A DNA stretch of 64,000 bases, taken from NCBI RefSeq assembly GCF_037042905.1, contig NC_087251.1:23004001-23068000 (forward strand). The letters are read 5' to 3'. Shown here in pieces: positions 1,253 to 42,769 of the stretch. The position numbers were made by a program, and so were the translations under genes. The notes under the pieces are model-generated. The model searched no databases. It saw only the letters and a program-made list of their open reading frames with translations, and was not told the origin of the DNA. This DNA comes from Lytechinus pictus. Taxonomy: Eukaryota. The first letter of the stretch is position 1. Each line of letters starts with the position of its first letter.

Positions 1253-1351
1253 TTTCCTGTACTGACGGCAACCCTTGTATGAATGGAGCTACTTGTGAGA
1301 ACGACACGTGTTCATGTTCTGAGGGATTGACTGGAGTTCTATGTGATACAA
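1253..1351 (+). CDS. EGF exon, type A
   Basis: ctag acceptor, SCTDGNPCMNGATCENDTCSCSEGLTGVLCDT, A|gtatgt; 99 nt, phase 1-1. Confidence 0.85.
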
Positions 1352-3010
1352 GTATGTAGTTCTAACAAACCTCATTACAAAGGGGTGACTTTCTTATTAA
1401 GGAAGCTTACCTTAAAAAAATACAATTTACAGTAGATCTAGTGCATAAAGAATACCGAAATGTGACATTGATTTTCTCGTAAATTTCTTGTGGGAAACGG
1501 TCAATATATGACCCCATGAATGCATAATTTGCCCTATTGGAGTCAGTATATTATTTGCCTAGTAGTCATATTTTGGGTCGTATATATACATATATATATA
1601 TACCCACACAAACACACACACACACACACATATATATATATTTATATACACACATAAAATATGATTATATCTTTTTCTCAGTCGCAGGCTCTGTCTCTCT
1701 TTCCCACACCCTCACAAAATAACCTTTTCACTAACCCTCTATGTAGTTGACTGCACTGCTGGCAACCCTTGTCTCAATGGAGGTACTTGTGAGGAGAACG
1801 ATACATGCACATGTACTAGTGGATTTAATGGAGATGTGTGTCAAACAGTTACCAACTTTGTTTATTTCAATATATAAAATGACCTCTGTGACATTTGCCC
1901 TTTGACCTCGTGAAGCTAAATTTTGTCAGATCATTTGAACTCACATATGCAAACAAAAGCCAAATTTAAAGTGTTCCCCTCAAAAGGATTTATAGTAAGC
2001 GCGAGAACGAAAACGGGACAGAAGGAAAAACGACCCGAAAATATAGTGGGGAGATGCATAACAGTCTTCTGCAGCCATGAAGTATCCCCCTTGAATTAAA
2101 AACCAATTCATCCTTTAAATTCATAAATTTTTTCCTTTAAGTTAAGCAATAAATCCATATTTGATTCATTGCCCTAATTTCTGCTTACTTTTTTAAAACC
2201 TTATTTTCATACAAATTTTACGTGTACTCCATTTAACTTATAATGGGTCTTTTTGAGCTCTTTTATAGTATTAAGTTGTGTACAGCGTCAAAAAATGATT
2301 GGTTAGGTTCCATTTCTTTATGGTGTAATAGCTTAAAAACAACAATATGACATTAAAAGTTGACTGTTTCATTTTTTTTTCCACCATGCTGAAATTCAGC
2401 ACACATGTTTCCTGCAATATGAATTTACGAGCCTGAATATTAATAATATTCAATATCAGATAAATTAAAAAATCATGCCTTCAAAAATCTTGTAAATGTG
2501 GCATACTTCAATAAGTTTCCATTAAGATATCATCTTTATAACCTATTAATTTATTTTCATTATGAAGATATGCAATATACATGCATACATACACACCAAG
2601 AACTTCATTTTCTACCATCTATCTTTCTCGATATCATTTTCCTCTCTCTCTCTCTAGTTTCCTGTACTGACGGCAACCCTTGTATGAATGGAGCTACTTG
2701 TGAGAACGACACGTGTTCATGTTCTGAGGGATTGACTGGAGTTCTATGTGATACAAGTATGTAGTTCTAACAAACCTCATTACAAAGGAGTGACTTTCTT
2801 ATTAAGGAAGCTTACCTTAAAAAATACAATTTACAGTAGATCTAGTGCATAAAGAATACCGAAATGTGACATTGATTTTCTCGTAAATTTCTTGTGGGAA
2901 ACGGTCAATATATGACCCCATGAATGCATAATTTGCCCTATTGGAGTCAGTATATTATTTGCCTAGTAGTCATATTTTGGGTCGTATATATACATATATA
3001 TATACCCCCC

Positions 3011-3043
<33 letters not shown>

Positions 3044-6000
3044 TTATATACACACATAAAATATGATTATATCTTTTTCTCAGTCGCAGGCTCTGTCTCT
3101 CTTTCCCACACCCTCACAAAATAACCTTTTCACTAACCCTCTATGTAGTTGACTGCACTGCTGGCAACCCTTGTCTCAATGGAGGTACTTGTGAGGAGAA
3201 CGATACATGCACATGTACTAGTGGATTTAATGGAGATGTGTGTCAAACAGTTACCAACTTTGTTTATTTCAATATATAAAATGACCTCTGTGACATTTGC
3301 CCTTTGACCTCGTGAAGCTAAATTTTGTCAGATCATTTGAACTCACATATGCAAACAAAAGCCAAATTTAAAGTGTTCCCCTCAAAAGGATTTATAGTAA
3401 GCGCGAGAACGAAAACGGGACAGAAGGAAAAACGACCCGAAAATATAGTGGGGAGATGCATAACAGTCTTCTGCAGACATGAAGATCCCCCTTGAATTAA
3501 AAACCAATTCATCCTTTAAATTCATAAATTTTTTCCTTTAAGTTAAGCAATAAATCCATATTTGATTCATTGCCCTAATTTCTGCTTACTATTTTAAAAC
3601 CTTATTTTCATACAAATTTTACGTGTACTCCATTTAACTTATAATGGGTCTTTTTGAGCTCTTTTATAGTATTAAGTTGTGTACAGCGTCAAAAAATGAT
3701 TGGTTAGGTTCCATTTCTTTATGGTGTAATAGCTTAAAAACAACAATATGACATTAAAAGTTGACTGTTTCATTTTTTTTTCCACCATGCTGAAATTCAG
3801 CACACATGTTTCCTGCAATATGAATTTACGAGCCTGAATATTAATACTATTCAATATCAGATAAATTAAAAAATCATGCCTTCAAAAATCTTGTAAATGT
3901 GGCATACTTCAATAAGTTTCCATTAAGATATCATCTTTATAACCTATTAATTTATTTTCATTATGAAGATATGCAATATACATGCATACATACACACCAA
4001 GAACTTCATTTTCTACCATCTATCTTTCTCGATATCATTTTCCTCTCTCTCTCTAGTTTCCTGTACTGACGGCAACCCTTGTATGAATGGAGCTACTTGT
4101 GAGAACGACACGTGTTCATGTTCTGAGGGATTGACTGGAGTTCTATGTGATACAAGTATGTAGTTCTAACAAACCTCATTACAAAGGAGTGACTTTCTTA
4201 TTAAGGAAGCTTACCTTAAAAAAATACAATTTACAGTAGATCTAGTGCATAAAGAATACCGAAATGTGACATTGATTTTCTCGTAAATTTCTTGTGGGAA
4301 ACGGTCAATATATGACCCCATGAATGCATAATTTGCCCTATTGGAGTCAGTATATTATTTGCCTAGTAGTCATATTTTGGGTCGTATATATACATATATA
4401 TATACCCACACACACACACACACACACATACATATATATTTATATACACACATAAAATATGATTATATCTTTTTCTCAGTCGCAGGCTCTGTCTCTCTTT
4501 CCCACACCCTCACAAAATAACCTTTTCACTACCCTCTATGTAGTTGACTGCACTGCTGGCAACCCTTGTCTCAATGGAGGTACTTGTGAGGAGAACGATA
4601 CATGCACATGTACTAGTGGATTTAATGGAGATGTGTGTCAAACAGTTACCAACTTTGTTTATTTCAATATATAAAATGACCTCTGTGACATTTGCCCTTT
4701 GACCTCGTGAAGCTAAATTTTGTCAGATCCTTTGAACTCACATATGCAAACAAAAGCCAAATTTAAAGTGTTCCCCTCAAAAGTATTTATAGTAAGCGCG
4801 AGAACGAAAACGGGACAGAAGGAAAAACGACCCGAAAATATAGTGGGGAGATGCATAACAGTCTTCTGCAGCCATGAAGTATCCCCCTTAAATTAAAGAC
4901 CAATTCATCCTTCAAATTCATATATTTTTCCTTTAAGGTAAGCAATAAATCCATATTTGATTCATTGCGCTAATTTCTGCTTACTATTTTAAAACCTTAT
5001 TTTCATACAAATTTTACGTGTACTCCATTCAACTTATGCGTCTTTTTGAGCTCTTTTATAGTATTAAAAGCTGTGTACAGCGTCAAAAATGATTGGTTAG
5101 GTTCCATTTCTTTATGGTGTAATAGCTTAAAACAACAATATAATGACATTATGAATTCATACTTGTGCCCATATCTCTTTCTTTCGTTCTTTCTCTATTG
5201 CTATCTCTATTTAGTTTCCTGTAGTGGCAACAGCCCTTGTATGAATGGAGCATCCTGTGAGAACGACGCGTGTTCATGCTCTGTGGGATTGACTGGAGAT
5301 CTGTGTGAAACAAGTATGAATTTCTAACACATCTTATTAAAATGAGTGTATGTGTGTGGTTTTCCATTTTGGTACTGTTTGACCAAACGCATTTTACGTG
5401 TTAAAGCCAAAATCGCATCCTGATGTCATTACGGAGGCCGCGTAGAAATGGAAAGTGAATTTCACTAACACGGGGAAGAAGACCCTCCCAACACATCCAC
5501 CATCCTGTCGGTCTTTTCCCTCTATTTGGGGGGGGGGGGCGGGGTAAAATAAATGAAATCATGATTTTCACAAAAAATCATGCACACACACACAAAGACA
5601 CAAAACAAAAAACTGCCATCTTTCCTGCGTACTATGGTAAACGGCAACCAAGAGTTAAGACAACTCACAGCTGTCTTAAAGTTTGGGGAAACTTTTTAGC
5701 CATTTGTATTTATGGAATACATACTGACTGCAGTTTCCAGAAACGTTACTTATCCATACATCCTAAATCAGTCTCAAAGGCGCAAAAACTCTTAGTCAAA
5801 TTCTAAGATACACGTTTTGGCTCATTTTTTGTTTGCCTTCGACAGAAAATAGGACAAACCGCTTAGATTTTCGACTCAATCATGCTTATACCATTTATGG
5901 AATACGGGCCCCGATCGTAAAAAGTATACATAAAGAATATATAGGTCAGGTACAGAGTGGTATGATCAACGTGCCTTCCTTTTGTTGACAATCAGTCAAC

Positions 6001-6824
6001 GTAATTTGTTTTCAAAGTTAAAAAAACATGAAATGAAGACAACTTAGGCGTTTTGATCTCTTACTTAGTCGCGTTAGTATTATGAAAATGTGATCCGGAA
6101 CAGAGTCTCAATTCGGCCTATTACCCTTAAGTTTTCTGATAAATTTCTCCGTCAAGGAAATTAAAGAAAAAATATCACTGTTTGATATGCTGCCCTTATT
6201 TCTGTTACTTTTGACTCGTTTTCTTCCTGATAAGAAGGTTTATTTACACTCGAAATAATAATTGTAAATGCCCTGTAAAACTTTTGTTTAAATCAAAATA
6301 TGCCTTGTTTAACTTAAGATTTGTATTATTTTCTTCCGATATTGAGTCATGTGCGTATTCAACAGTAATTGATAAGGATCAATTTTCTTATGGTGTAATA
6401 ACGACGAAATAAAAACTAAGTTCGTTTCTACCCTCTATCTTTCTCGATATCAATTTCTTCTCTCTCTCTTTAGTTTCTTGTACTGACGGCAACCCTTGTA
6501 TAAATGGAGCTACTTGTGAGAACGACACGTGTTCATGTTCTGAGGGATTGACTGGAGATCTCTGTGATACAAGTATGAAGTTCTAACAATCCTTATCTAA
6601 TAAGAAAAGTCGCTATTCTTACCTTTCCTTGTTAACAAAAACTTACCCTTTATGTGTTTTAAAATAATTTTTAAATACATTTAGTGCATATAGAACATCG
6701 AAGTGTGGCAAAATAAAATTTCCTAATCTTTTTTTTTAGAGTTGAGAATTTTTGACATCAAATTTCGAAAGCGCATGATAAAATGTCTCCACAACCTACA
6801 TTGTGGGAATCGGTAAATTTCGGC

Positions 6825-6859
<35 letters not shown>

Positions 6860-9800
6860 CTTCATGAATACATAATTGGCCCTATTGGAGTCAGTATATT
6901 ATTTGCCTAGTAGTCATATTTTGGGTCGTATATATAAAAAAAAAATATATATATATATATATATACATAAAATATGATTATATCTGGCAACCCTTGTCTC
7001 AATGGAGGTACTTGTAAGGAAAAGGATACATGCACATGTACTAGTGGTTTTAATGGAGATGTGTGTCAAACAGGTACCAACTTTGTTTATTTCAATATAT
7101 AAAATGACCTCTGTGACATTTGCCCTTTGACCTCGTAAAGCTAAGTTTTGTCAGATCATTTGAACTCACATATGCAAACAAACGCCAAATTTAAAGTGTT
7201 CCCCTCAAAAGGATTTATAGTAATCGCGAGAACGAAAACGGGACAGAAGGAAAAACGACCCGAAAATATAGCGGGGAGATGCATAACAGTCTTCTGCAGC
7301 CATGAAGTATCCCCCTTAAATTAAAGACCAATTCATCCTTCAAATTCATATATTTTTCCTTTAAGTTAAGCAATAAATCCATATTTGACTCATTGCCCTA
7401 ATTTCTGCTTACTTTTTTAAAACCTTATTTTCATACAAATTATACGTGTACTCCATTTAACTTATAATGGGTCTTTTTTAGCTCTTTTATAGTATTAAGT
7501 TGTGTACAGCGTCAAAAATGATTGGTTAGGTTCCATTTCTTTATGGTGTAATAGCTTAAAAACAACAATATGACATTAAAAGTTGACTGTTTCATTTTTT
7601 TTCTCACCATGCTGAAATTCAGCACACATGTTTCATGCAATATGAATATAGAGCCTGAATATTAATAATATTCAATATTAGATGAATTAAAAAATCATGC
7701 CTTCACAAATCTTGTAAATATGTCATACTTCAATAAGTTTCCATTAAGGTATCATCTTTATAACCTATTAATTTATTTTCTTTATCAATATATGCAATAT
7801 ACATGCATACATACACACCCATAACTTCATTTTCTACCATCTATCTTTCTCGATATCATTTTTCTCTCTCTCTCTAGTTTCCTGTACTGACGGCAACCCT
7901 TGTATGAATAGAGTTACTTGTGCGAACAACGCGTGTCCATGTTCTGCGGGGTTGACTGGAGTTCTATGTGATGCAAGTATGTAGTTCTAACAAACCTCTT
8001 TACAAAGGAGTGGCTTCCTTATTAAGGAAGCTTACCTTAAAAAAATACAATTTACAGTAGACCTAGTGCATAAAGAATACCGAAATGTGACATTGATTTT
8101 CTCGTAAATTTCTTGTGGGAAACGGTCAATATATGACCACATGAATGCATAATTTGCCCTATTGGAGTCAGAATATTATTTGCCTAGTAGTCATATTTTG
8201 GGTCGTATATATACATATATATATACCCCCCCCCCCCACACACACACACACACATATATATATATTTATATACACACATAAAATATGATTATATCTTTTT
8301 CTCAGTCGCAGGCTCTGTCTCTCTTTCCCACACCCTCACAAAATAACCTTTTCACTAACCCTCTATGTAGTTGACTGCACTGCTGGCAACCCTTGTCTCA
8401 GTGGAGGTACTTGTGAGGAGAACGATACATGCACTTGTACTAGTGGATTTAATGGAGATGTGTGTCAAACAGTTACCAACTTTGTCTATTTCAATATATA
8501 AAATGACCTCTGTGGCATTTGCCCTTTGACCTCGTGAAGCTAAGTTTTTTCAGATCATTTGAACTCACATATGCAAACAAACGCCAAATTTAAAGTGTTC
8601 CCCTCAAAAGGATTTATAGTAATCGCGAGAACGAAAACAGGACAGAAGGAAAAACGACCCGAAAATATAGCGGGGAGATGCATAACAGTCTTCTGCAGCC
8701 ATGAAGTATCCCCCTTGAATTAAAAACCAATTCATCCTTTAAATTCATATATTTTTCCTTTAAGTTAAGCAATAAATCCATATTTGATTCATTGCCCTAA
8801 TTTCTGCTTACTTTTTTAAAACCTTATTTTCATACAAATTTTACGTGTACTCCATTTAACTTATAATGGGTCTTTTTGAGCTCTTTTATAGTATTAAGTT
8901 GTGTACAGCGTCAAAAATGATTGGTTAGGTTCCATTTCTTTATGGTGTAATAGCTTAAAAACAACAATATGACATTAAAAGTTGACTGTTTCATTTTTTT
9001 TTCCACCATGCTGAAATTCAGCACACATGTTTCCTGCAATATGAATTTACGAGCCTGAATATTAATAATATTCAATATCAGATAAATTAAAATATCATGC
9101 CTTCAAAAATCTTGTAAATGTGGCATACTTCAATAAGTTTCCATTAAGATATCATCTTTATAACCTATTAATTTATTTTCTTTATGAAGATATGCAATAT
9201 ACATGCATACATACACACCAAGAACTTCATTTTCTACCATCTATCTTTCTCGATATCATTTTCCTCTCTCTCTCTAGTTTCCTGTACTGACGGCAACCCT
9301 TGTATGAATGGAGCTACTTGTGAGAACGACACGTGTTCATGTTCTGAGGGATTGACTGGAGTTCTATGTGATACAAGTATGTTGTTCTAACAAACCTTAT
9401 TACAAAGGAGTGACTTTCTTATTAAGGAAGCTTACCTTAAAAAAATACAATTTACAGTAGATCTAGTGCATAAAGAATACCGAAATGTGACATTGATTTT
9501 CTCGTAAATTTCTTGTGGGAAACGGTCAATATATGACCCCATGAATGCATAATTTGCCCTATTGGAGTCAGTATATTATTTGCCTAGTAGTCATATTTTG
9601 GGTCGTATATATACATATATATATACCCACACACACACACACACACACATACATATATATTTATATACACACATAAAATATGATTATATCTTTTTCTCAG
9701 TCGCAGGCTCTGTCTCTCTTTCCCACACCCTCACAAAATAACCTTTTCACTACCCTCTATGTAGTTGACTGCACTGCTGGCAACCCTTGTCTCAATGGAG

Positions 9801-12141
9801 GTACTTGTGAGGAGAACGATACATGCACATGTACTAGTGGATTTAATGGAGATGTGTGTCAAACAGTTACCAACTTTGTTTATTTCAATATATAAAATGA
9901 CCTCTGTGACATTTGCCCTTTGACCTCGTGAAGCTAAATTTTGTCAGATCCTTTGAACTCACATATGCAAACAAAAGCCAAATTTAAAGTGTTCCCCTCA
10001 AAAGGATTTATAGTAAGCGCGAGAACGAAAACGGGACAGAAGGAAAAACGACCCGAAAATATAGTGGGGAGATGCATAACAGTCTTCTGCAGCCATGAAG
10101 TATCCCCCTTAAATTAAAGACCAATTCATCCTTCAAATTCATATATTTTTCCTTTAAGGTAAGCAATAAATCCATATTTGATTCATTGCGCTAATTTCTG
10201 CTTACTATTTTAAAACCTTATTTTCATACAAATTTTACGTGTACTCCATTCAACTTATGCGTCTTTTTGAGCTCTTTTATAGTATTAAAAGCTGTGTACA
10301 GCGTCAAAAATGATTGGTTAGGTTCCATTTCTTTATGGTGTAATAGCTTAAAACAACAATATAATGACATTATGAATTCATACTTGTGCCCATATCTCTT
10401 TCTTTCGTTCTTTCTCTATTGCTATCTCTATTTAGTTTCCTGTAGTGGCAACAGCCCTTGTATGAATGGAGCATCCTGTGAGAACGACGCGTGTTCATGC
10501 TCTGTGGGATTGACTGGAGATCTGTGTGAAACAAGTATGAATTTCTAACACATCTTATTAAAATGAGTGTATGTGTGTGGTTTTCCATTTAGGTACTATT
10601 TGACCAAACGCATTTTACGTGTTAAAGCCAAAATCGCATCCTGATGTCATTACGGAGGCCGCGTAGAAATGGAAAGTGAATTTCACTAACACGGGGAAGA
10701 AGACCCTCCCAACACATCCACCATCCTGTCGGTCTTTTCCCTCTATTTGGGGGGGGGGCGGGGTAAAATAAATGAAATCATGATTTTCACAAAAAATCAT
10801 GCACACACACACAAAGACACAAAACAAAAAACTGCCATCTTTCCTGCGTACTATGCTAAACGGCAACCAAGAGTTAAGACAACTCACAGCTGTCTTAAAG
10901 TTTGGGGAAACTTTTTAGCCATTTGTATTTATGGAATACATACTGACTGCAGTTTCCAGAAACGTTACTTAGCCATACATCCTAAATCAGTCTCAAAGGC
11001 GCAAAAACTCTTAGTCAAATTCTAAGATACACGTTTTGGCTCATTTTTTGTTTGCCTTCGACAGAAAATAGGACAAACCGCTTAGATTTTCGACTCAATC
11101 ATGCTTATACCATTTATGGAATACGGGCCCCGATCGTAAAAAGTATACATAAAGAATCTATAGGTCAGGTACAGAGTGGTATGATCAACGTGCCTTCCTT
11201 TTGTTGACAATCAGTCAACGTAATTTGTTTTCAAAGTTAAAAAAACATGAAATGAAGACAACTTATAGCGTTTTGATCTCTTACTTAGTCGCGTTAGTAT
11301 TATGAAAATGTTATCCGGAACAGAGTCTCAATTCGGCCTATTACCCTTAAGTTTTCTGATAAATTTCTCCGTCAAGGAAATTAAAGAAAAAATATCACTG
11401 TTTGATATGCTGCCCTTATTTCTGTTACTTTTGACTCGTTTTCTTCCTGATAAGAAGGTTTATTTACACTCGAAATAATAATTGTAAATGCCCTGTAAAA
11501 CTTTTGTTTAAATCAAAATATGCCTTGTTTAACTTAAGATTTGTATTATTTTCTTCCGATATTGAGTCATGTGCGTATTCAACAGTAATTGATAAGGATC
11601 AATTTTCTTATGGTGTTATAACGACGAAATAAAAACTAAGTTCGTTTCTACCCTCTATCAATTTCTTCTCTCTCTCTTTAGTTTCTTGTACTGACGGCAA
11701 CCCTTGTATAAATGGAGCTACTTGTGAGAACGACACGTGTTCATGTTCTGAGGGATTGACTGGAGATCTCTGTGATACAAGTATGAAGTTCTAACAATCC
11801 TTATCTAATAAGAAAAGTCGCTATTTTTACCTTTCCTTGTTAACAAAAACTTACCCTTTATGTGTTTTAAAATAATTTTTTTAATACATTTAGTGCATAT
11901 AGAACATCGAAGTGTGGCAAAATAAAATTTCCTAATTTTTTTTTCTAGAGTTGAGAATTTTTGACATCAAATTTCGAAAGCGCATGATAAAATGTCTCCA
12001 CAACCTACATTGTGGGAATCGGTAAATTTGGGCCCAATATATATATATAACTTCATGAACACATAATTGGCCCTATTGGAGTCAGTATATTATTTGCCTA
12101 GTAGTCATATTTTGGGTTGTATATATACATATATATATACC

Positions 12142-12174
<33 letters not shown>

Positions 12175-14547: not shown

Positions 14548-14580
<33 letters not shown>

Positions 14581-31378: not shown

Positions 31379-31409
<31 letters not shown>

Positions 31410-34400
31410 TGGGGGGGGGGCAGATAGATTTTATGGACTATGGGGGAATGGGCTAGTTCTGCTTGATGCCGTTACATTTTACGAAAATTATTTGCAAGAT
31501 AATGCAGTTGCTGTCGTACAGTTTCTTTAGCCTCTTTTCTCATGAAATTCATTAAGATCGAACGATTTTTCTGCACAAATAAAGGCTGTGGAAATAAGAA
31601 TGTGAAAGAATAAGCCTTTTATTTTTTGTATAGATTTTGGAAGTTACTAAATTACGGCACCGTGATTAATAAATGACCAGTTTTGATTAGTTTCGGTCTC
31701 TTAAGTAAATTTCGTGAGTTACTACATTAGAATTTAAGGCATTAGTCAATAAAAATTGTAATTTTAGTGTAGCATTTTAACATCATGTGGATCTCAGCAG
31801 TGAGTTTTTCTTAGGGATGATTTTTTGCATCATAAAACATCTCTATTTAAATAATAACAATTTGTTCCTCTTCTCTCCGTAGTTGACTGTTCTGGTACAA
31901 ACCCTTGCATGAATGAAGGTACATGTGGGGATGGTTCATGTTCATGCGTTGAAGGATTTACTGGAGTCTTGTGTGATACAGGTATAACAATGTGTTCAAA
32001 GTATATATATATATATATATTCTTTTTTTTTTGGGGGGGGGGTTCATGCTAATATTCTTAATATCATTTTTTTTTTATGGAATGAACTATTTTATTCTTT
32101 GTTTTCCTCAGACATGCTGTCTGGTGCAGTTAACACAAAATAAATAAGAGTGCTCTTGAGACAGGGTCGATATCAAATATTTTGTCAATACATTTTGATT
32201 ACGTTGAAAATGTAACGCTTTTTTCTATTCTGTTATAAAACTGGCATTGCTGATATCAACACCAAGGTGATTAAAATCTATATTAAAGGCACTTTGCTAT
32301 TCTATTATCTCATTGATATGATTGATTCTAAGGCCATTTTATTAATTTTCAGTCCTTATATCAAAGATATAAAAGGATACCAAGTATAGATGAGTTACGT
32401 CAAAATAATCAATTTATTTCCGTTTAAGCTGGAGTTGCTTGTAAAGTCAGAGTTTTGATTTCCCATGTAATCATGTTATGAAATGTATTACGATCAGGAA
32501 AACAGCAACTCTGGTGGCACAAATTAATGCCTGCATAATAGTAAATGTTTTATTGGTGACTTTTGCAATTGTTTTGATCCTGAAATGTGAGGATTTATTC
32601 AATTGAATGCCCATCAGCAATTAGAATATTTACGTTGCCCCACACCTCACCTTTCCACGCAATCTCTTCATCTCAGTGACAAAATTTAATTCGGTTTTTG
32701 TGTCAGCTAGACCACAATTTCTTTTGTAATGTTTATCTTGCAAAGATTTGAGATTGTTGTTGACACGTTTTATATCCTGCAGTTGACTGTTCAGGTGACA
32801 ACCCCTGTAGGAATGGAGGTACATGTGGGAACAATACATGCACATGTGCAGCTGGATACACTGGAATTGTGTGCCAGTCAGGTAAGTCAAATTTATCAAA
32901 AGATAACATGATATGCATGAATGCCTAAGACACATTTGCCGATGTTTCTACATCTCAGGTCCATAATAAAGTATTACTTCACCGCAGAATTTCCACGGTC
33001 ATGCATTGCATTTTTTTTTATTTAAGGAAGAGTGGCAGCGGCGTAATGAGTCTTTTTAGGGGCAAGACATGGCATGCAAGGCAAATCTTTTTGAAAAGCT
33101 GCGAAGCGAGCAAAAATTCCCTTTCGTCTCGCCTGCATAGCAGAGCGAGACTATAGGCGCCGGTCTTCTGACGGCGGCGGCGGCGTCGTCAACATCAAAA
33201 TCTTAAGTTTTTGAAATGACATCATAACTTAGAAAGTACATAGACCTAGTTCGTGAAACTTGGACATAAGGGTAATCAAGTATAACTGAACATCCTGCCT
33301 TGGTCTCAGGTCACATGACCAAGGTCAGTGGTCATTTAGGGTCAATAAACTTTGGCCATGTTGGGGTATTTGTTGAATTACCGTCGCAACTTTGAAAGTT
33401 TATGGATCTAGTTCATAAGACTTGAACATAAGAGTAATCAAGTATCGCTGAACATCCTGTGCAAGTTTCAGGTCACATGACCAAGTTCAAAGGTCATTTA
33501 GAATTATTTTTATTAAATTGCCTTCGGCTAAAAAGTTATGCCATTCATAATAAAAGAAAACGGGGGTTACGTTTGTATTACCTATATTTAAAATTTAACA
33601 GATTTCACACATTGAAAGAAAGATGGAAAATGAAGAAGAAACGCGCAGAAAATGTTATGGAGACTATTTGAGGAGTGAAGGATTGCATTCGGGAAATTTT
33701 GAAGGTACAGGCAATTATTTAGTATTTTTGTGACCCTTTTAAAAAAGTTTTTACAATCCATTTCATGTATATGTCTTGAAACAGAGGTAATTCAGATAAG
33801 GATGGATGCGGTATTCAGTGGAGAAACTTTTTCAGAAGTCTTGGGAAACACCTCTTCAGATGAGTTTATGGCAGCTGCTGCAAGCTGGGAAACAACGGCA
33901 AGTATATCTACATATACATTTTGCTCATTATATGATAGAATTGATAAATCTAATTTGATGTAAGAGTCATTCTAGTCAATTATTTATGATTTTATATCCA
34001 ATCAAATATGTAGACTGTCATGGTTCTCAGTTGTTATGTTGACAATTTTTTTCTCTCCAAGTTAGTTTTCAGGAATATTTATTGGCTTCAGGCTGTCAAA
34101 AAACATGAATTGATCAATGAACCGGAATCATAGGAAACACGAAGGGAATATTCCCACGGACTCTGCAGTGTAAAACAAATTAAAAGTTTCTCGAGTTAGG
34201 CATGTAAAGTGTACCTGAACAGTGACCATGTCTTATTGACTGCCTCTTGCCAACTCACTACTGGTTATTGACAAATCGGGTACCAAAGAATTTTTCAATG
34301 ATGCCTTGGAATTTTAAAATTATGAACTTTAGAACTGGACCATAATGTTGACTGGGTATGAGGTGGTGTGGATGGAATATTTTTTTTTTGGCTTTGGAAA

Positions 34401-37400
34401 AGGCAGCTTCAGGTAAAGCAACTACTAGTAAGCCTACATATGTTCATGTATTAAAAATGAGATTCGATGTCAATAATGACACAATTCATTTTTTTTTTGG
34501 GGGGGTAGAACATGAAGATAAGTTTTTTCCGCGTTTTTTTTTCATGGTAGGTATTGATGTGCAACTATATATCAAATGATCAGACAATACTGCTTCATTG
34601 GACTTATCTGAAGTAGTTAAAATCCCAGTTCTCAGATGTGCATCCTTGGTTTTATACGAATTTATTTTTGTATCTTTCTTTGTGTCGACTAATAACGGGA
34701 ACTGATGGTGTGCGGCCTTCAGTCTCAGAAGGGCTAGAGTAGACTACTGACACCCACAGTACCTGTGATCGTTGGACATGGGACACCAGCCATACACATA
34801 ACAATGAATTAAGATGGTTTACTATGGACATTGGCCTCTCGTAATATACAACACATATAACAATATGCAGTACCCAAGACCCGCTTTTTACTACGCACGA
34901 TAGAGCATAGTTCTCAAGACTATTTATTTTACACAAGGTAGTCAGGTTCTTTGACCTCTATTAAAGTTACACCCCTATTACAGGGATTCGCCCCCCCCCC
35001 CCGCACATTCCCGTCAAATATAATACACAGCCAGACTGTAACAATTAGCGATACCTATTTACGCCAAAATTCTGATAAATTAAGTTCTATTCTTACAGCT
35101 CACAACAAGTTACTGTGAAGACCAAGGATACTCGGAATCTGAATGCCCATTCACAATAAAGGTAGTCGGATTCAGCAATGGATCTTTGGTAGTAAATTAC
35201 AATGTTTTTTACTCAAGTTCCGATGGAGTGGATGATAGTTTCGATCCTACCGAGGTCGTGATCATGGACGACAGTGGATCTACCCTCCCTTCTACATTTA
35301 GTCGTTTATCTCGTGAGTATTTCACTTCTTAATTCTTTCACAGAAAGATTTTATTTTAAGGACGTTCCACAGTTATATTTGTGCGCATTATGATCTGCGC
35401 ATAGTTTACACTCTGCGCGCTGACGTCACAATGGATGAACAGGTATTAATTAGCTGCGGGTATGAGCTGATTTTTCTCATCTTCTGCACTTTAACTGCAG
35501 ATCCGATGCGTTATTTCATGAAGCTAAAAAATTGAATTATTCCATGGACCATTCAAAAAAATATTCTCTACAATTTCAAAATACTTTACTCTGCAGTGCT
35601 GCCAAGAATCACGAATATTAGCCCGAGTTTGAATAAATGGTAGAGTGGTTTTGAATTTTTTCTTCACATAGATACTAAGCATTCGGCCCATTTTTTGTGT
35701 TTTAAAAAGCACATTTGCTCTAATAAAAATGCTGATAGTTTAAAAACAAGCACATGAACCCCTATTTTTTAATGTTTGTACCTCTTAGGTATACCTTCCT
35801 CTACAACTCTGCAAATTTTGGTGAAAATGACATGGATTTTGAATAAAGTGCAGCATTTATTGTACGTTTGTAGTTTGTTACTGAAATTTTACATTTTTCA
35901 GATTGGGATTTTGTTATCTTTTACGCCATTTTTAAGAACTGACAGTGCTGTTAAACTTAAAATTGCAAACAAATAGCACTATTAATAGATTCTCCATTCT
36001 AACGATACAATTATTAACTCTCTTGCGAAATTTGATGACTTTTTCATGTATTTTGAATGAGTAATGGAGGTTTAAACTCATTGTAGTAATCTTGGGCGGT
36101 CTAAAAATGCCAAATTCTTTTGAATGCGCAATTCTTAAGAACATCAATTTGGGTGAACTTTGAAGCTCTATAGCAAAAAATCAAGCACATGGACCTATGT
36201 TAATTTTTGCATATTTCGAATATTAAGGTTCTAAAGTATCTATGTGCAAAGTTTGGTGAAAATGACATGGATTTCACTTTAACTGTGGAACGTCCTTAAA
36301 TGACACATGAAACAAGCAATCAAGATATTTCACATCAATTCAATAACGCAAATCTAAACTGTAATCTTCATGATGAAATGAATCCAATATATTTGATGAA
36401 GAAGCCGCATGATTTCACAATATGTACCCCAAAATCATATCAAACTGATCTTCTTTACATCAATTTACTTAAAATGAACAATAAAATATTGAGTGCCAGG
36501 CCAAACAAATCCCCCCCCCCCAAATATTTTATTCAAATGCATATCATAGTTCAAGGGTGAACTTTGAGAGATCTAAATAAATTGCTTAGTTAAAGGACAG
36601 TCCCGAGTTGCAAAATACTTTAACAAAGAAAATCCAAAATATGAACAGATTACATTCAAACAAGCCCAGATACTATAACAAAGATCATAGAGATATTTCT
36701 TAACCCAAATAATCAATGGAAAAGTTTAAATTGAAAGTAATAGTTTAATTGAAAGGTAACGTTTTAAAGAGAATCACATTCAGTCTCCTGCCATTGCAAA
36801 AAAATAAAAAATAAAATTATTTGCATAGCAAAAGCCTTTATATGACTGTGCGCATTGTATCCCTGACAAAGACGTTAGGATTGTGTCAAAAATTTGGAGA
36901 ATACTTGGAAGTAAACTTTGTTGGAACTGCAATGCATTACTTCTTTGTCCCTTATATATATATATATATATATAGTATACACACACACACACATATAACT
37001 GAAATTTTGTGAATGAACTTGCACATGTTACATACTTCAAAACCCAAGGACATTGCAAATCATTTTAAAGCTTAACATTTTCTCATTCTGTTGGTATAAC
37101 TCAAGAGGATTCTTCATTCAGGTATGACTAAGCAAAAACAATTTGAAGGACACCAAAAAGTAACTTGGCGGTTGGCATCTGAGTTTCAAAAAGAAAATTA
37201 TGTCCAAAGCATTTGATATCTGCTTTTCAGTTTGATACCTTTTCATTTATTCCGAACTGTACTCATAAAACGATTGTCCATGCATAATTCACACCAGAAT
37301 AACAGAAAGGTAAACATAAAATATGAAGCCCACCTTGAATAGAGTCTCCAATGGTGATGGGGTTTGGAGTTCCCTTTCTAAGAATTGAAAAAAGAAGTAT

Positions 37401-40400
37401 AATAACATTGGAAGAAAATCATGTTGATAAGCTTTATCTTTTCTTTACTGCAACATTGAAAACTTGTTAACCTTTCTTTGAAGCAATTACAGCAAAATAG
37501 GTCTTTCCACCAGAATGAACATCGGGTGACCAAAGTGCCGACAATACACTTGGGCCAAACTTTCTACTACTATTTTGTAACTGATATCATTGAAGCCTTT
37601 GTTTTACAATAATTCTTTTTTCTTACTCTCAGTTACCTGTGGTGGGAATGTATGTGATGGCTGTGAATCGTGTCCCATAGGTAAGATCTTGTTTATGAAT
37701 AAGTGCTTAGTTGTTTTACATTAGTGAATGTAAACAGCTCTTATTTATGTGGGTCAAAACACAATTCAATGTCTTCTATTACATAATATAAAACATTTAA
37801 ATAACACTTGATATAGTTTCTAAGCCCTGCATACCATTACCCTCACTGATCAAGTGCTCAATCATTCAAAGAATACCTTCCCACCAGGTACCCGTTTACT
37901 ACACTTTGGTGGAAAGTGGCACTGTCCTTGCCAAAGGATGCAAGATGTGAGTGCTGTATAGGGATACAGGAACAAATCTTCTGTGCCACAACACCTCTAC
38001 AATCCCACAATCTATTACACAACAAATATTAAATCTTTCTTTATAAAAAAAAAACATTTAGGATGTCCAAAAATTGATTTAATACTTTACTTTTACTTGG
38101 TAAATTGAAGTCATATTACACTGATAAAACATACTGTATTTTGTATGGGAATTATAATATGATAATGGCTATTTCAAAGATTTCAAGTTATCAAAAAGGA
38201 ATACTAAAAAAGAATACCTTTAAGAAACAAAGATGTAAATTTCACAACTACAAAAATGTATTATTTAGACAGAATGAAATTTTATCCAATTTATGTACTA
38301 GAGTAAATGGAAGAGTAGTCCTCACCTACCTACTTGTCTGGCATTTTTCGTTATCTGATAATTATTGCTCATTTTATAATGACAATACATGTCAAATACA
38401 TGTCATGTGGTTACCTATTGTACATTGACATCACGTTTCATATCTTTTCTGACAAATGGTACTGTTTCCTTTTTCAATCCAGTTGAGGCTCAATGCAACA
38501 ACTCACAGACCCCTTGTCAGAACGAAGGTATCTGCGTGTTCGGAGAATGTGTATGTGCCCCGGGGTACACTGGAGTTTTGTGCGCCAATACCAGTAAGAT
38601 CTCCTATGATTTTAGTTTTTGCTTAAAATGTAGGCTAAACATCCAAACTTGAAAATTATAGTATATATTCAATAGATTTTGTATAGGCCTACGTTAATTG
38701 AATTACTGTATGTAACCCCTACACCTCCTCCACCTAACCCACCTTCTGAGTTGCCTAGGTTGTCGAACTGTTTCAGTGGCTCAATAATATAGCTCAAAGC
38801 GAAGAGGCGCTATCTGTTACAGTGCGTATTGAGTTTAGCAAAGTTTGCTTGCGCTTGCGAAATTTCTTCTAACCAATTAACAGCCTTATATATCTCAAAT
38901 CTCCTAAAATATAAGGCCTTATCTACTGAAAATAATAAAAACATAATAGTGAATGATATGAATAATTTTGATTGGTGCATATATTCCTTTTTGAATGAGA
39001 GCACCGTTAAAAACCAATCAACATCAACAAAAGCCCCTCCCCATTCAGGGTATGAAATCCTCATAGTGATTAGTATTATGTAAAACAAAATCAACCTATA
39101 AAATGTCAACTGTAAAATGTACAACTTATAGGTATGCTGGTGGGGGAGAGGGGGTGCAAAGGCACAATTTACCGTTTCAAAATACCATCATAATTTCCCA
39201 CTTTTCTCAAAAGATCCATCAAAGAATATGCCCATCCATTTTACATTAACGTTGTTATATATGTATATATATTATATTATGTACATAAATGTATAAACTT
39301 TCTTTTAATCTCAAAGTCATCTGCAGTTCAGAGACCCCCTGTCAGAATGGAGGTACCTGTGCGGATGGTGCATGTACATGTGGCTCCGGATACGCTGGAG
39401 ATTTGTGCAATGCAACTGGTGAGATCCTTTGTTTTCATATTTCTTTTACTTGAATACATAATGTACATGTAGGCTTTCATAATACTAACCTATTTTGATG
39501 ATAGTGCTGAAATACATAATACACCAAGGATGCTGACTTCTAACAAAATATTTAAGTCATAAATCAAGGAAGGTGGGGAAGACATTTCCAGTCCATGACA
39601 GATACTTTGACGTCTCTATCTGTGACAATTTTTTTTTTTTTTTTTCTGTGATGGAGTTATCTCCACAATCATTAGCAAAGTTAAAAAGAGTTTTAAAAGT
39701 TATAGTATTAAAATGAGGGAGGGGGGTCTCTTAACACAGTGGCATAAGTCTAAAATTCATTTTAAAATATCCATCAATTAACTTCATGTTTTTTTTTGGT
39801 CATTTTACAGCTGATTTCATAGTTCTGTTTATTCGACAAATGCACTGATTTCTTACCCTATAAACCTGACTTTGAAGTATCACATTCTGTTCAGTCAATG
39901 GCTTAATAGTTAATGAAATGACTTTCGGTCCCATGAGTATCTAAATATATGCAATATTCTTTGTTTTTCATCATTTCATCATTTGCTTTTGTTTCTATTG
40001 TGTTAAATTGCTTCGAAACTAATGTGCTTTTTAACTAATCAACTTGGTTTTGATTATTCATAAAAGACAACTCAATCAACCAATAGACTTTAATAAAGGA
40101 AATAGCAAAATTAAAAGCCCCCGCAGTATTGCTGAATGTTTAGTTTAATTAATTATATATTTTTTTGTATTTCCATACTTTCATTATTACAGTGAGGACT
40201 CAAGGGGTAAGTGAAATTAATCAAGTTAACGCTTGATCAGGGAAGAATTATAATACCGTTCTTTTTTTCATCGGAAAAAATGGGTAGAGCTGAGCTATAA
40301 ATATTTCAAAGTAGTATACAAAAAAAATTCTTTAAAAAATCATCAATGTTATTAATAGAAAAATTCCCATGGAAACTGCTAACTTGGGGTAAGCAGATTT

Positions 40401-42755
40401 TCCAAAAATTGGCATATTTCATGGTAGAGTACAGCAAAATATGCAATTATGCAACATGAATTTTAGACAAAGTGATTTTTTACAAAATACATACAGATTT
40501 GGTGACTAAAAGAGTGACCAACCAACTTAAATATGATTGGGCATGAATATGAAAAGTAGCACTGTCACTTTTCAAAAGTCACAAGAGTCATGTTAATGTC
40601 ACTATGCCGTCATTAAATTTACCCAGTTAACTTGGGATTTTCAAATTCATTACTAAGAATGTTCTCTCAACAGTAGTGCATGTATACAAGATTCTATATT
40701 CAACAAATTGTGACCATAACTGATTTTGTATGTCATTGTCACATACACTGGATTCATCTGGATTGAAAAGTGACAAAAATAGCCTTTGTGTGTGCTCACT
40801 AAAATGCATTCCTTGACATGTCACTAAAAAGTCTGTCAGATTAAATTGCTAACATATTTTGAATAACAGTTATTATATCTCAGTTAAGAGGAACTTACTA
40901 ATACCAGTGTCTATAACCATGTTTTTCATTCTCTTGTCATTAAAGCCCATCTTTGCTTCCCTCATAGAGGTTTTAGTTCTAACTAAATATATAACTAAAT
41001 AAGTACAATTTATAACAACAAATTGTACTTAAGTTTTAATTCTATTTTAGCCCAGAACACGACAGGGATATAAAAATTTATGCCTCATTGGCAGACATGC
41101 TGACCATATCCTAAAGTAATAAATCTGTTTTTAATCACACATTGTAATAACATCATTATTATTTTTTTCCTGGCAGGATCTGCAATGCTACACTTGTTCT
41201 GCTAGTAGTGTAACAGATGATTGTTCTGCAGCAATTGGAACTGATTCTGAAGTAACACCCATGACATGCTATGAGAACCAGCGATGTTGGGTATTAAATA
41301 CTTCACATTTTATTGTTATGCTTACATCTTATGAGTGAAAATGCATGTCTTTTGAGGACCTCTAAATGTTACTTGCATTTATCAAAAAAAAAGTTTCCCT
41401 TGCTTTTGTTAATTTTTAACAAATAGTCAATTGATGAATATATGTGTATTTAGAAGTGTTTTGACATACCCGTCTTAATTAGCAGTAAAACAAGTCCAAA
41501 AATCCAGTCCCAGCCCTACCCTCTTATACACAAAAGTTATTCAGGATAAAAACAAAGAAATACAGAATTGTATTATGTCAGAAATTAGGCTTCCACTACC
41601 CTTTAACCACCCCATTCTATTTTTCATCATTTCAAATGTAGTGTCAAAAATTTACTGCACATGTATGAGCCCATACTTGTATTCACCTTTCAAATGACAA
41701 TTAGTTTCATGACAATACCTCTCCATCCAGCCATATCACATCATAATGTGTTCTTCTCTAAAATGTTATTTTTATACAAAGCCATTCAAGGTCTTTCTTT
41801 TTATCATCTATATTCAGTATCATACCAATCCTGTCAAGCTATAAATGAGACCAAAATTAAATCTCTTGCCCCATGTATACCAAAAATATTCATGTCATTT
41901 CATAAATTGCATAGATTTCTCCTATAATTCCACCTCGATCCCCTCACACTGTTTCATTCTATTAATCACATTGTCACAAATTTGTGTGCCAATTAAATTA
42001 ACAGACATGATAGAGTAACATATTCAGTTTTCAAATGACACAAATTTCATGAAAATGCTATGTTAAACCAAGATATTGTTATGGTAGAAGTGGTACTCTG
42101 GGCTGAAGATAATTATATAAATGCTGAAAATCTCATGAAATTTAGAAAACAAAGTTACTGAATTTCAAAGTTTAGCAATATCAGGTAAAAACAATTGCAC
42201 ACTGGCATGAATATGCAATAGGTGGGCTGATGATTTCATGTCGCCACTTTCATTTTTTCTTATATTACGTGAAATCATAATCGTTTCGTTTCACATTTTG
42301 CCTGATTTACTTTAAATTGGTTAAAATCATATTTTTTCAGCTCGAAGTACCCCTTTAAACACAATAAATTTCAGGTAGCATAACAAAGCCACCTCTTACT
42401 GGGCCGAGAACATAAATGACAACAAGACGTTTATGAAAACTTGCAAACCTCTTACAAAAGTTCAAGTCAAACAACTATGAAACTTCTATGTTCCTTGCAG
42501 ACCGAGCATTACGAGAACTCAACACATACCAACATTTGGCGTGGATGTACTGATTCGATATGCAGTACCGAGAACAGTGATGGACCTTCTTGCCTGTCGA
42601 CAGGGGATGGAAACATCCTATGTGTTTTCTGCTGCGAGGCATCTTTGTGCAACAATGACCCAAGCTCTGGCAACACCATTTCAAGTTCTGTCACTAACAC
42701 TTGGTTGGCATCTCTTATTTCTTTGATCATCATGTATGCTACTTTTAGAACCTAA
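1253..42755 (+). CDS. 5'-partial multi-exon gene: poly-EGF / SEA / EGF2 / Ly6-uPAR GPI-anchored surface glycoprotein (32 splice-competent exons visible)
   Basis: Exons join in one frame: 24 phase-1 EGF exons (1253-32881), 33785-33897, 35099-35312, 37633-37680, 38483-38593, 39317-39418, 40193-40206, 41177-41290, 42501-42755 (TAA). No start codon or signal peptide in the window. Confidence 0.85.
1747..1848 (+). pseudogene. B-type EGF exon with mutated donor
   Basis: Copy of 347-448; G|ttacca. Confidence 0.7.
2658..2756 (+). CDS. EGF exon, type A
   Basis: AG/GT intact, same as 1253-1351. Confidence 0.85.
3149..3250 (+). pseudogene. B-type EGF exon with mutated donor
   Basis: G|ttacca. Confidence 0.7.
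4057..4155 (+). CDS. EGF exon, type A
   Basis: AG/GT intact. Confidence 0.85.
4544..4645 (+). pseudogene. B-type EGF exon with mutated donor
   Basis: G|ttacca; upstream branch-like CTAAC reduced to CTAC. Confidence 0.7.
5215..5313 (+). CDS. EGF exon, type C
   Basis: SCSGNSPCMNGASCENDACSCSVGLTGDLCET, ttag / A|gtatga. Confidence 0.85.
6474..6572 (+). CDS. EGF exon, type D
   Basis: SCTDGNPCINGATCENDTCSCSEGLTGDLCDT, ttag / A|gtatga. Confidence 0.85.
6984..7073 (+). pseudogene. B-type EGF exon remnant, acceptor and first Cys deleted, donor intact
   Basis: gattatatct joins directly to ggcaacccttgt; ends caaacag|gtacca. Confidence 0.8.
7878..7976 (+). CDS. EGF exon, type A'
   Basis: SCTDGNPCMNRVTCANNACPCSAGLTGVLCDA, AG/GT intact. 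Confidence 0.8.
8371..8472 (+). pseudogene. B-type EGF exon with mutated donor
   Basis: CLSGGTC variant; G|ttacca. Confidence 0.7.
9278..9376 (+). CDS. EGF exon, type A
   Basis: AG/GT intact. Confidence 0.85.
9765..9866 (+). pseudogene. B-type EGF exon with mutated donor
   Basis: G|ttacca; same CTAC variant as 4544. Confidence 0.7.
10436..10534 (+). CDS. EGF exon, type C
   Basis: Same as 5215-5313. Confidence 0.85.
11682..11780 (+). CDS. EGF exon, type D
   Basis: Same as 6474-6572. Confidence 0.85.
12280..12381 (+). pseudogene. B-type EGF exon with mutated donor
   Basis: G|ttacca. Confidence 0.7.
12951..13049 (+). CDS. EGF exon, type C
   Basis: AG/GT intact. Confidence 0.85.
14196..14294 (+). 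CDS. EGF exon, type D
   Basis: AG/GT intact. Confidence 0.85.
14804..14905 (+). pseudogene. B-type EGF exon with mutated donor
   Basis: CLNGSTC variant; G|ttacaa. Confidence 0.7.
15710..15808 (+). CDS. EGF exon, type A'
   Basis: SCTDGNPCMNGVTCANDACPCSAGLTGVLCDA, AG/GT intact. Confidence 0.85.
16204..16305 (+). pseudogene. B-type EGF exon with mutated donor
   Basis: CLSGGTC variant; G|ttacca. Confidence 0.7.
16870..16968 (+). CDS. EGF exon, diverged type C'
   Basis: SCMAGNPCMNGATCANDACTCSAGLTGDLCET, ttag / A|gtatga. Confidence 0.85.
17673..17952. mobile_element. 280-bp MITE flanked by TTAA
   Basis: TIR aggcccggtcccac / gtgggaccaggcct. Paralogous introns show the empty site tgtttaacttaagat (e.g. 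~6307-6321). Confidence 0.75.
18135..18229 (+). pseudogene. EGF exon lacking its 3' donor
   Basis: ctag acceptor, SCSTGNPCMNTGTCENDACSCSAGLSGNMCD then ttattt; no GT at the homologous position. Confidence 0.7.
18587..18688 (+). CDS. EGF exon, intact B-type
   Basis: NCTAGNPCLYGGTCEENDTCTCTTGLTADVCQT, tgtag / G|gtacca. Confidence 0.75.
18954..19888. mobile_element. 935-bp non-autonomous DNA transposon, TTAA TSD, purine termini (Kolobok-like), copy 1
   Basis: TTAA-ggacgttccaaagtta ... taactgtggaacgtcc-TTAA; highly similar to 35360-36295; empty site tcccccttaaattaaagacc in upstream array units. Confidence 0.85.
20330..20750 (+). mobile_element. Partial Helentron/HINE-like element
   Basis: tgacctttgacc core repeats, (GCC)n tract, end gcggcgcctatagtctcgctctgctatgca matching 56401-56480. 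Confidence 0.7.
21200..21884. mobile_element. Degenerate piggyBac-type MITE
   Basis: Right end ...tagataggg-TTAA; G-run/C-run subterminal motifs at both ends; left TIR eroded. Confidence 0.4.
23194..23292 (+). CDS. EGF exon
   Basis: TCSGGNPCQNGVTCSNDACPCPSGLTGELCDT, ttag / G|gtatga. Confidence 0.9.
23751..23849 (+). CDS. EGF exon (B-related)
   Basis: DCNDGNPCLYEGTCENDTCTCISGLTGDVCQT, ttag / G|gtacca. Confidence 0.85.
24500..24598 (+). CDS. EGF exon
   Basis: TCSDGDPCQNGATCTNDACPCPAGLTGDLCQT, ttag / G|gtataa. Confidence 0.9.
25119..25217 (+). CDS. EGF exon
   Basis: SCSAGNPCMNGGSCENDACSCSPGLTGNLCQT, ctag / G|gtaata. Confidence 0.9.
25318..26440 (-). mobile_element. 5'-truncated L2/CR1-group LINE (RT C-terminal region, 3' UTR, (TTA)n tail)
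   Basis: ORF 25667-26404 has LKLNEAKTE, DLGVILD, LDYCNSLL, LHWLP, RSFS..AP.LWN motifs; (TAA)n at 25318-25335. Confidence 0.92.
27982..28080 (+). CDS. EGF exon
   Basis: DCSVANPCQNGANCTNDACTCPAGLTGDICQT, ctag / G|gtaaag. Confidence 0.9.
29151..29255 (+). CDS. EGF exon
   Basis: DCNLESDPCQNEGTCADGACTCASGYTGVLCSNA, gtag / A|gtaaga. Confidence 0.9.
30026..30127 (+). CDS. EGF exon
   Basis: DCAGDNDPCQNGGTCENNACTCSSPYIGSVCDT, gcag / G|gtatgg. Confidence 0.9.
30595..30693 (+). CDS. EGF exon
   Basis: DCSGANPCVNGGTCQDGACSCTDNFDGVLCGS, gcag / G|gtatga. Confidence 0.9.
31883..31981 (+). CDS. EGF exon
   Basis: DCSGTNPCMNEGTCGDGSCSCVEGFTGVLCDT, gtag / G|gtataa. Confidence 0.9.
32783..32881 (+). CDS. EGF exon
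   Basis: DCSGDNPCRNGGTCGNNTCTCAAGYTGIVCQS, gcag / G|gtaagt. Confidence 0.9.
33122..33500 (-). mobile_element. Partial Helentron/HINE-like element (opposite orientation)
   Basis: gtctcgcctgcatagcagagcgagac hairpin, (GGC)n, ggtcaaaggtca-type core; reverse complement of the 56100-56480 family. Confidence 0.75.
33785..33897 (+). CDS. SEA domain exon 1 (GC donor)
   Basis: acag acceptor; EVIQIRMDAVFSGETFSEVLGNTSSDEFMAAAASWETT fits SEA F...L....S.EF pattern; ACG|gcaagt. Confidence 0.75.
35099..35312 (+). CDS. SEA domain exon 2
   Basis: ttcttacag acceptor; LTTSYCEDQGYSESECPFTIKVVGFSNGSLVVNYNVFY...FSRLS; C|gtgagt. Confidence 0.85.
35360..36295. mobile_element. 936-bp non-autonomous DNA transposon, TTAA TSD (Kolobok-like), copy 2
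   Basis: TTAA-ggacgttccacagtta ... taactgtggaacgtcc-TTAA, perfect 16-bp TIR. Confidence 0.88.
37633..37680 (+). CDS. 48-nt Cys-rich mini-exon
   Basis: Long pyrimidine tract + tcag; TCGGNVCDGCESCPI; AG|gtaaga; phase 1-1. Confidence 0.7.
   Translation, partial: LPVVGMYVMAVNRVP
38483..38593 (+). CDS. EGF exon (post-SEA)
   Basis: EAQCNNSQTPCQNEGICVFGECVCAPGYTGVLCANT, ccag / A|gtaaga. Confidence 0.9.
39317..39418 (+). CDS. EGF exon (post-SEA)
   Basis: ICSSETPCQNGGTCADGACTCGSGYAGDLCNAT, aaag / G|gtgaga. Confidence 0.85.
40193..40206 (+). CDS. 14-nt microexon (phase 1 to phase 0)
   Basis: ttacag|TGAGGACTCAAGGG|gtaagt; encodes VRTQG and restores frame to 41177. Confidence 0.65.
41177..41290 (+). 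CDS. Ly6/uPAR (LU) domain exon 1
   Basis: ggcag acceptor; DLQCYTCSASSVTDDCSAAIGTDSEVTPMTCYENQRCW, LxCYxC start motif; G|gtatta. Confidence 0.88.
42089..42354. mobile_element. Degenerate MITE related to 58913-59510
   Basis: Ends agtggtactctgggctgaa / ttcagctcgaagtacccct-TTAA; shared internal ggtgggctgatga motif. Confidence 0.45.
42501..42755 (+). CDS. Terminal exon: LU domain C-half and GPI-anchor signal
   Basis: ttgcag acceptor; ...WRGC...CVFCCEASLCN, then SSG spacer and hydrophobic WLASLISLIIMYATF with no cytoplasmic tail; TAA. Confidence 0.9.
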   Translation, partial: TEHYENSTHTNIWRGCTDSICSTENSDGPSCLSTGDGNILCVFCCEASLCNNDPSSGNTISSSVTNTWLASLISLIIMYATFRT

Positions 42756-42769
42756 CTGAATGAACTGAA

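Follow-up and report, generated by a model that had tools for sequence, protein, structure and literature searches.

The sea-urchin protein SP63 has the domain order EGF-SEA-EGF-EGF in 470 residues, with few EGFs, and is not known to have an LU domain. It was described as a 63-kDa sperm flagellar membrane protein of S. purpuratus with a signal peptide, EGF repeats and a GPI anchor demonstrated with PI-PLC (PMC2119707), and it is the namesake of the SEA domain (PMC13643018). EGF, SEA and GPI anchor without LU have a sea-urchin precedent in this protein. The SEA-type mucins MUC1, MUC3A/B, MUC12, MUC17 and MUC13 combine a long stalk, a membrane-near SEA domain with a Gly-Ser site, and EGF-like domains (PMC13643018). 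The standard LU protein consists of LU domains only, with a signal peptide and a GPI or TM anchor; a survey of 387 invertebrate genomes, among them 7 echinoderms, reported LU-only, receptor-kinase and 7TM types (PMC13719153). LU together with EGF or SEA is absent from the main text of this 2026 survey, including its legend on unusual architectures, and its supplements may contain such proteins (PMC13719153). EGF is not mentioned in the portion available of a study of 48 starfish LU proteins (PMC11595613), and the available portions of PMC13409769 and PMC10381214 add no EGF/SEA/LU combination. No description of an EGF+SEA+LU architecture was found in the freely accessible literature, and the combination seems to be undescribed.

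The window, a 64,000-nucleotide stretch of the Lytechinus pictus genome (contig NC_087251.1, positions 23,004,001 to 23,068,000, forward strand), was scanned in six frames. The + strand held 36 EGF-motif copies, 34 before the middle (SEA) domain and 2 after it, and the minus strand held none. Splice-site inspection gave 24 usable EGF exons before SEA from 1253 onward, each of 99-105 nt and phase 1-1. In all, 32 exons between 1253 and 42755 (24 EGF, 2 SEA, a 48-nt 4-Cys exon, 2 EGF, a 14-nt micro-exon and 2 LU) splice into a single open frame of 1,118 residues, whose sole stop is terminal, at 42753-42755. Acceptors are AG and donors GT throughout, except for one GC donor after SEA exon 1. The original prediction of 32 exons in one frame and at least 24 EGF repeats was reproduced on both counts, with 24 intact EGF exons before SEA in the window and 34 in the full model described below.

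The gene starts about 15 kb upstream of the window. In 150 kb of scanned upstream DNA, EGF copies end 12.7 kb before the window; the upstream copies lacking intact sites comprise one with a lost acceptor and two truncated ones. The resulting 44-exon model predicts 1,473 residues with 34 EGF units before SEA and only two hydrophobic peaks, one at each end. A loose signal-peptide scan from -15100 to 42500, calibrated on two known signal-peptide exons, returned six rows at four places, of which only the first, at the start of the array, was convincing. Feature coordinates are listed in Table 1.

Table 1. Features of the EGF-SEA-LU gene and its upstream paralogue (window positions unless given as contig positions).
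Feature	Position	Strand	Remarks
Signal-peptide exon	contig 22988952-22989000	+	
24-nt exon after signal-peptide exon	contig 22989771-22989794	+	
10 further intact EGF exons	contig 22991309 to 23003953	+	
9 EGF copies, intact acceptor, GT-to-TT donor	347..16305	+	shared donor change; starts 347, 1747, 3149, 4544, 8371, 9765, 12280, 14804, 16204
13 EGF exons, 99 nt, intact splice sites	1253..16968	+	recently amplified array; starts 1253, 2658, 4057, 5215, 6474, 7878, 9278, 10436, 11682, 12951, 14196, 15710, 16870
EGF copy, weak in-phase donor only	18135..18242	+	outside model
11 older, more diverged EGF exons	18587..32881	+	last 4 present in nr record; starts 18587, 23194, 23751, 24500, 25119, 27982, 29151, 30026, 30595, 31883, 32783
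SEA exon 1, GC donor	33785..33897	+	identical residues in P0001; weak Pfam SEA
SEA exon 2	35099..35312	+	Gly-Ser and three aliphatic residues at predicted beta-hairpin turn
4-Cys linker exon	37633..37680	+	RNA joints; counterpart in S. purpuratus P0133
EGF exon after SEA	38483..38593	+	Pfam EGF_2 E 1.2e-6; RNA joints
Second post-SEA EGF exon	39317..39418	+	RNA joints
14-nt micro-exon, phase 1 to phase 0	40193..40206	+	letters found between EGF and LU in RNA
LU exon 1 (three-finger), 5 Cys	41177..41290	+	RNA joints
LU exon 2, 7 Cys, stop	42501..42755	+	CCxxxxCN end, small-residue site, polar spacer, hydrophobic tail
Start of 3' untranslated region	42756..43020	+	RNA
Paralogue, 7 exons, 535 residues	contig 22961936-22968088	+	36-42 kb upstream of window

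Transcription was checked over 37560-43020 with two same-species RNA runs (X9 and X10) and with contigs of two further runs, X5 and X1. From X9 and X10 roughly 6% of the reads were used, and depth was low, roughly 2-9 on the LU exons. Exon coverage lay on the strand expected for RNA of the + strand. Reads supported the linker-EGF joint 37680 to 38483 (4 in X9, 3 in X10), the EGF-EGF joint 38593 to 39317 (1 and 4), the EGF-LU joint from 39418 through the micro-exon to 41177 (1 and 8) and the LU-LU joint 41290 to 42501 (9 and 1). All four joints were also present in X5 contigs, micro-exon letters included; one X5 contig carried about 267 further letters beyond the linker exon, and one extended about 1.36 kb beyond 43020. 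An AATAAA is located at 44416. The X1 contigs covered introns and showed no joints, and X1 may therefore represent DNA or unspliced RNA. A short high-copy repeat at 42100-42250, within the LU intron, showed very deep coverage from other loci.

Because RNA joins EGF to micro-exon to LU, the LU exons are part of the EGF transcript. A separate gene for them, named in the original prediction as a finding that would overturn it, was looked for and is ruled out by these reads. A kinase or 7TM continuation past LU, of the activin-receptor or GPCR type, was rejected as well, the last exon passing through the stop into untranslated RNA. In nr, the L. pictus record XP_054759353.1 (P0001, 'fibropellin-1-like') matches the final 12 exons in 454 of the 455 residues compared, in the order 4 EGF, SEA, linker, 2 EGF, LU and tail, with no signal peptide. 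The locus is confirmed as a real, transcribed gene and the 32-exon reading is right; chance can be set aside because the RNA joints match all four junction spans and because of the nr match. For the order array, SEA, linker, the basis is the splice sites, the nr model and a S. purpuratus relative (P0133), from which we infer that the whole EGF array is joined to SEA.

The EGF domains scored above the Pfam cut-off. For the SEA domain claimed in the original prediction, the Pfam score on the whole protein fell below the cut-off (14.7 versus 26.4 bits, E 0.035). In a low-confidence model (mean pLDDT 49) the region takes a strand-helix-strand-strand order, the Gly-Ser falling on the hairpin turn. 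Searched against 48,161 chains, this low-confidence model gave as its top match the Muc16-type SEA 1ivz (Z 5.7, rmsd 4.5, 113 aligned), followed by the SEA domains of TMPRSS6, Gpr126 and MUC16 SEA5 (Z 5.1-4.3); unrelated ferredoxin-like folds tied with SEA structures in the same search. No structural match was obtained with a single-sequence fold (pLDDT 38), and Foldseek on the second model returned EGF proteins only. A genome-wide Pfam SEA search found 11 places, none at this locus. Only P0001 was recovered by a word-based search with the SEA region (152 candidates), only P0001 matched SEA or LU among 126 protein sequences compared, and residues 136-458 had a single low-scoring Atlas match (0.77). 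The middle domain is probably SEA.

The published SEA self-cleavage motif is G/S[V/I]VV (PMC13643018). The Gly-Ser here is a possible self-cleavage site; the case is weakened because Leu follows it in place of Val/Ile, and strengthened because the site is kept in S. purpuratus P0133, where the longest identical SEA run, 9 residues, spans it.

LU domains usually contain 8-10 Cys. The predicted 12-Cys LU domain was recovered with the three-finger Cys pattern, a CxxC start and a CCxxxxCN end, and its spacing (2,8,14,5,16,4,9,9,2,0,4) is near-identical in S. purpuratus relatives. Its only PDB sequence match was LYPD1 (E 0.012, residues 2-89 of 92), and the LU clan accounted for 10 of the 10 best Atlas neighbours with a family (0.88-0.90), which we treat as a lead only. 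No LU family was matched by Pfam on the whole protein, and neither SEA nor LU was matched on single exons of this gene and its paralogue or on the S. purpuratus relatives. In both models pLDDT of the LU region was below 50, and all fold-search matches came from the EGF and SEA regions. LU and SEA are divergent and below Pfam cut-offs, yet supported by structure and sequence matches; an LU subfamily under the normal thresholds may explain why it was overlooked.

At the C-terminus, a hydrophobic 15-residue stretch is followed by two residues and the stop, in agreement with the hydrophobic signal originally noted. By rule, the protein shows the GPI-signal pattern of signal peptide, small-residue site, spacer and hydrophobic tail, and the tail pattern was kept in all five S. 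purpuratus relatives checked. On this pattern, the protein is likely to be GPI-anchored.

The upstream paralogue in Table 1 opens with a signal peptide and a 260-residue exon in which Pro, Thr and Ser make up 38%; SEA and LU follow, each on two exons and with a linker between them, and the product ends in a hydrophobic tail. Its intron phases in SEA and LU equal those of this gene; the intron at window 33897, after SEA exon 1, is of the GC-AG type here, and the paralogue has GT at that place. Alignment between the two genes scored 112 for SEA (shuffles 29±5) and 87 for LU (shuffles 36±7), and in each case 0 of 500 shuffles reached the score. By these alignments the SEA and LU domains are homologous. 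The paralogue SEA is without the Gly-Ser motif. In the two genes, a Pro/Thr/Ser tract and an EGF rod take the same position on one type of SEA-LU base, so that stalks would have been swapped on it; this supports the proposal that an EGF rod replaces the Ser/Thr tract. Genome searches with LU exon 2, SEA exon 2 and P0136 returned this locus only; these searches are insensitive, since they missed the upstream paralogue.

LU exon 2, compared with 1.84 billion representative sequences, had seven matches: the protein itself, three true relatives and three artefacts (P0127, P0131 and P0132), which were rejected as repeat-driven noise. In S. purpuratus, P0133 (BLASTP E 4e-38) contains the latter half of SEA followed by the 4-Cys linker, LU and tail, P0129 carries EGF, LU and tail, and P0135 has three EGF-like repeats (spacing 5,5,4,1,5), LU and tail; the clusters also contain LU-only fragments from that species. 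The relatives XP_011662621.1, XP_030855055.1, XP_030855056.1, XP_030855196.1 and XP_030854203.1 have the LU subfamily and tail in common, and four current S. purpuratus RefSeq models likely lie on one 45.2 Mb scaffold. P0001 and the S. purpuratus models are partial and automatically named, and SEA and LU are absent from their names. No relatives were found outside sea urchins in searches of limited reach, and the SEA-LU family is apparently limited to them.

Fibropellins have a CUB domain, calcium-binding-type EGFs and a C-terminal avidin domain. Here, neither CUB nor avidin was matched by Pfam and none of the 36 EGF units has a calcium-binding-type start. The name 'fibropellin' is misleading because the EGF Cys spacing differs, being 5,5,4,1,8 in this protein as against 4,5,8,1,8 in 13 of the 16 units of a L. 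pictus fibropellin-like protein. The same short EGF type, at 62% identity, occurs in the S. purpuratus adhesion GPCR XP_030842218.1 (P0126) and in LOC100888963 (P0002), with the 5,5,4,1,8 spacing in 5/6 and 8/8 units, respectively. P0126 also has SEA, together with Ig, GAIN/GPS and 7TM, whereas Pfam found no GPS or 7TM in this protein. Derivation as a block from the adhesion-GPCR ectodomain was not supported, the SEA likeness being no better than shuffles (76 of 500 reached the score); with the adhesion-GPCR SEA not close, only the EGF exon module seems to be shared. P0002 and P0126 also contain LDLa-like repeats, and P0002, which ends just past an EGF, may be a truncated model.

Like the SEA-type mucins, this protein is predicted to have a long stalk; it has a probable SEA domain near the membrane, with a Gly-Ser, and adjacent EGF-like domains. 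Unlike them, it has no Pro/Thr/Ser tract, its stalk being 34 six-Cys EGF units, and no transmembrane helix or cytoplasmic tail, their place being taken by LU and a GPI-like tail. Compared by description only, it differs from SP63 in its roughly 34 EGFs before SEA, its 4-Cys linker and its 12-Cys LU; SP63 was not among the matches of protein searches with this gene. As in LYPD1/Lynx2, CD59, Quiver, Bouncer and starfish Lystar, the LU domain spans two exons with the CxxC and CCxxxxCN signatures and a GPI-like tail. Unlike in standard LU proteins, it has no signal peptide of its own and ends a 1,400-residue ectodomain, and the LU-only architecture does not apply, as RNA joins its exons to EGF exons. 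The protein would work like a SEA-type membrane mucin or SP63, yet it belongs neither to the mucins nor to the standard LU proteins.

On balance, the gene probably encodes a mucin-like, GPI-anchored glycocalyx protein, in which a predicted stalk of about 34 EGFs is borne by a probable SEA domain, followed by two EGFs and an LU domain at the membrane. This agrees with the mucin-like surface polymer of EGF rod and LU-GPI module first proposed, which the paralogue and the RNA joints support, the anchor being predicted. The signal peptide would direct the protein to the secretory route, where the hydrophobic tail would be exchanged for a GPI anchor. The rod contains 3.8% Pro and 18% Cys, with a net charge of -145. 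N-glycan motifs occur in 22 of the 36 EGF units; the O-fucose motif occurs in 34 of 36 and the O-GlcNAc motif in 32 of 36 (motif of PMC8950332) or 6 of 36 (stricter motif, PMC6125653), both being common in EGF proteins generally. The acidic, non-calcium-binding repeats may accordingly be O-fucosylated, O-GlcNAcylated and N-glycosylated; the rod they form would resist proteases, measure very roughly 85-100 nm and provide the spacing and shielding otherwise supplied by a Pro/Thr/Ser tract. SEA would cut itself at Gly-Ser during folding and keep its halves together, as in MUC1 and MUC17 (PMC13643018). With the halves so held, pull or binding could release the rod, which would then act as a break-away part or a decoy. 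LU would remain membrane-bound, where it may engage an adjacent receptor in cis. Across the family, the SEA-LU-tail base would be retained and the stalk exchanged or resized.

A broader and distinctly more speculative proposal, which we offer tentatively, is an undescribed group of sea-urchin 'LU-anchored mucins'. Its members would share a conserved SEA-LU-GPI base with interchangeable stalks: a Pro/Thr/Ser tract, EGF-like repeats, or a glycosylated rod of 34 disulfide-locked EGF units. The EGF rod could replace the mucin tract, the stalk could be shed at a self-cut SEA, unmasking LU, and continuing amplification of exons, together with loss of splice sites, could retune its length. Besides occurring alone, LU domains are known from receptor kinases, some GPCRs and a few other fusions; here the LU domain would anchor a mucin-like protein at the membrane. 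The neighbouring paralogues would be a natural swap experiment, with a mucin stalk in one and an EGF rod in the other. If true, glycocalyx spacers would have a second mode of construction, and shedding could activate a three-finger protein by a testable route. L. pictus is a species amenable to laboratory work. The component parts are all familiar; what appears to be new is the combination, and the proposed role is a prediction.

That the protein is instead a gamete or cell recognition molecule, contacting a partner on another cell through its LU domain, as Bouncer does, or through its EGF rod, appears unlikely, although it is the best of the alternatives. Rapid changes in repeat number and LU loops would then stem from selection of the kind proposed for SP63, either species-specific or driven by pathogens. 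LU and SEA are just ~42-49% identical to the S. purpuratus relatives over aligned positions, as such selection would allow, and the amplification of the EGF exons appears very recent, array segments of 3.4-5.2 kb being 96.7-98.5% identical, which marks the array as young. SP63, on sperm flagella, is itself an EGF protein with a GPI anchor (PMC2119707), and GPI-type LU proteins occur on starfish coelomocytes (PMC13409769). However, the LU domain would lie beneath the stalk at the membrane, a poor position for cell contact unless the stalk is shed, and the sister gene bears a plain mucin stalk.

The splice sites of the young array bear on the length of the protein. Of the 48 EGF copies before SEA in the window and upstream DNA, 14 have a broken or weak splice site; the copy at 6983 has lost its start. 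In each of the nine dead-donor copies the frame closes at a stop 26 bases downstream of the missing donor, with an AATAAA/ATTAAA some 200-270 bases beyond the stop. These copies are likely skipped pseudo-exons, and use as alternative last exons is conceivable. On such grounds the functional protein might be far shorter than 1,473 residues, the young-array exons being skipped or ending at dead-donor copies, with short anchored and secreted EGF-only forms and the long rod a by-product of tandem duplication. Every EGF exon is phase 1-1 and therefore freely skippable, and the nr model has just four EGFs before SEA. Against this, 34 copies before SEA retain six Cys and both splice sites, and pooled dN/dS, computed from pairs that are not independent, was 0.43 among 22 distinct 99-nt units (31 exons) and 0.63 once Cys codons were removed, in both cases below 1. 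Poly(A)-like hexamers are also common in DNA of 65% A+T, and the one convincing signal-peptide exon among the four candidate places is that at the array start. We regard this short-protein reading as quite improbable.

Least probable is a split into an upstream secreted EGF-repeat gene (signal peptide at -15 kb) and, downstream of it, a short gene for EGF-SEA-LU whose first exon would have escaped detection, a reading to which the 4.5 kb without EGF exons (18688-23194), an ATG at 25094 in frame through a pyrimidine tract into EGF exon 25119 and the late start of the nr model lend some appearance, but EGF units on either side of the gap share Cys spacing and phase in a smooth sequence gradient, the nr model has no signal peptide, and the 25094 candidate yields about eight hydrophobic residues, which come from the acceptor tract.

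Other elements were observed in the window. On the minus strand, an open frame of at least 631 codons (62107-63999), GC-richer and with 72-, 57- and 12-base repeats, runs off the window end and gave no Pfam match. A LINE-like fragment lies at 56874-57919 (-), within which 57506-57919 matched Pfam RVT_1 (E 1.6e-14); 25670-26449 (-) was LINE-like by eye, without an RVT_1 match by Pfam. A 163-base tandem repeat family occupies 20326-20643 and 55600-56406, with sequence similar by eye near 33250-33500.
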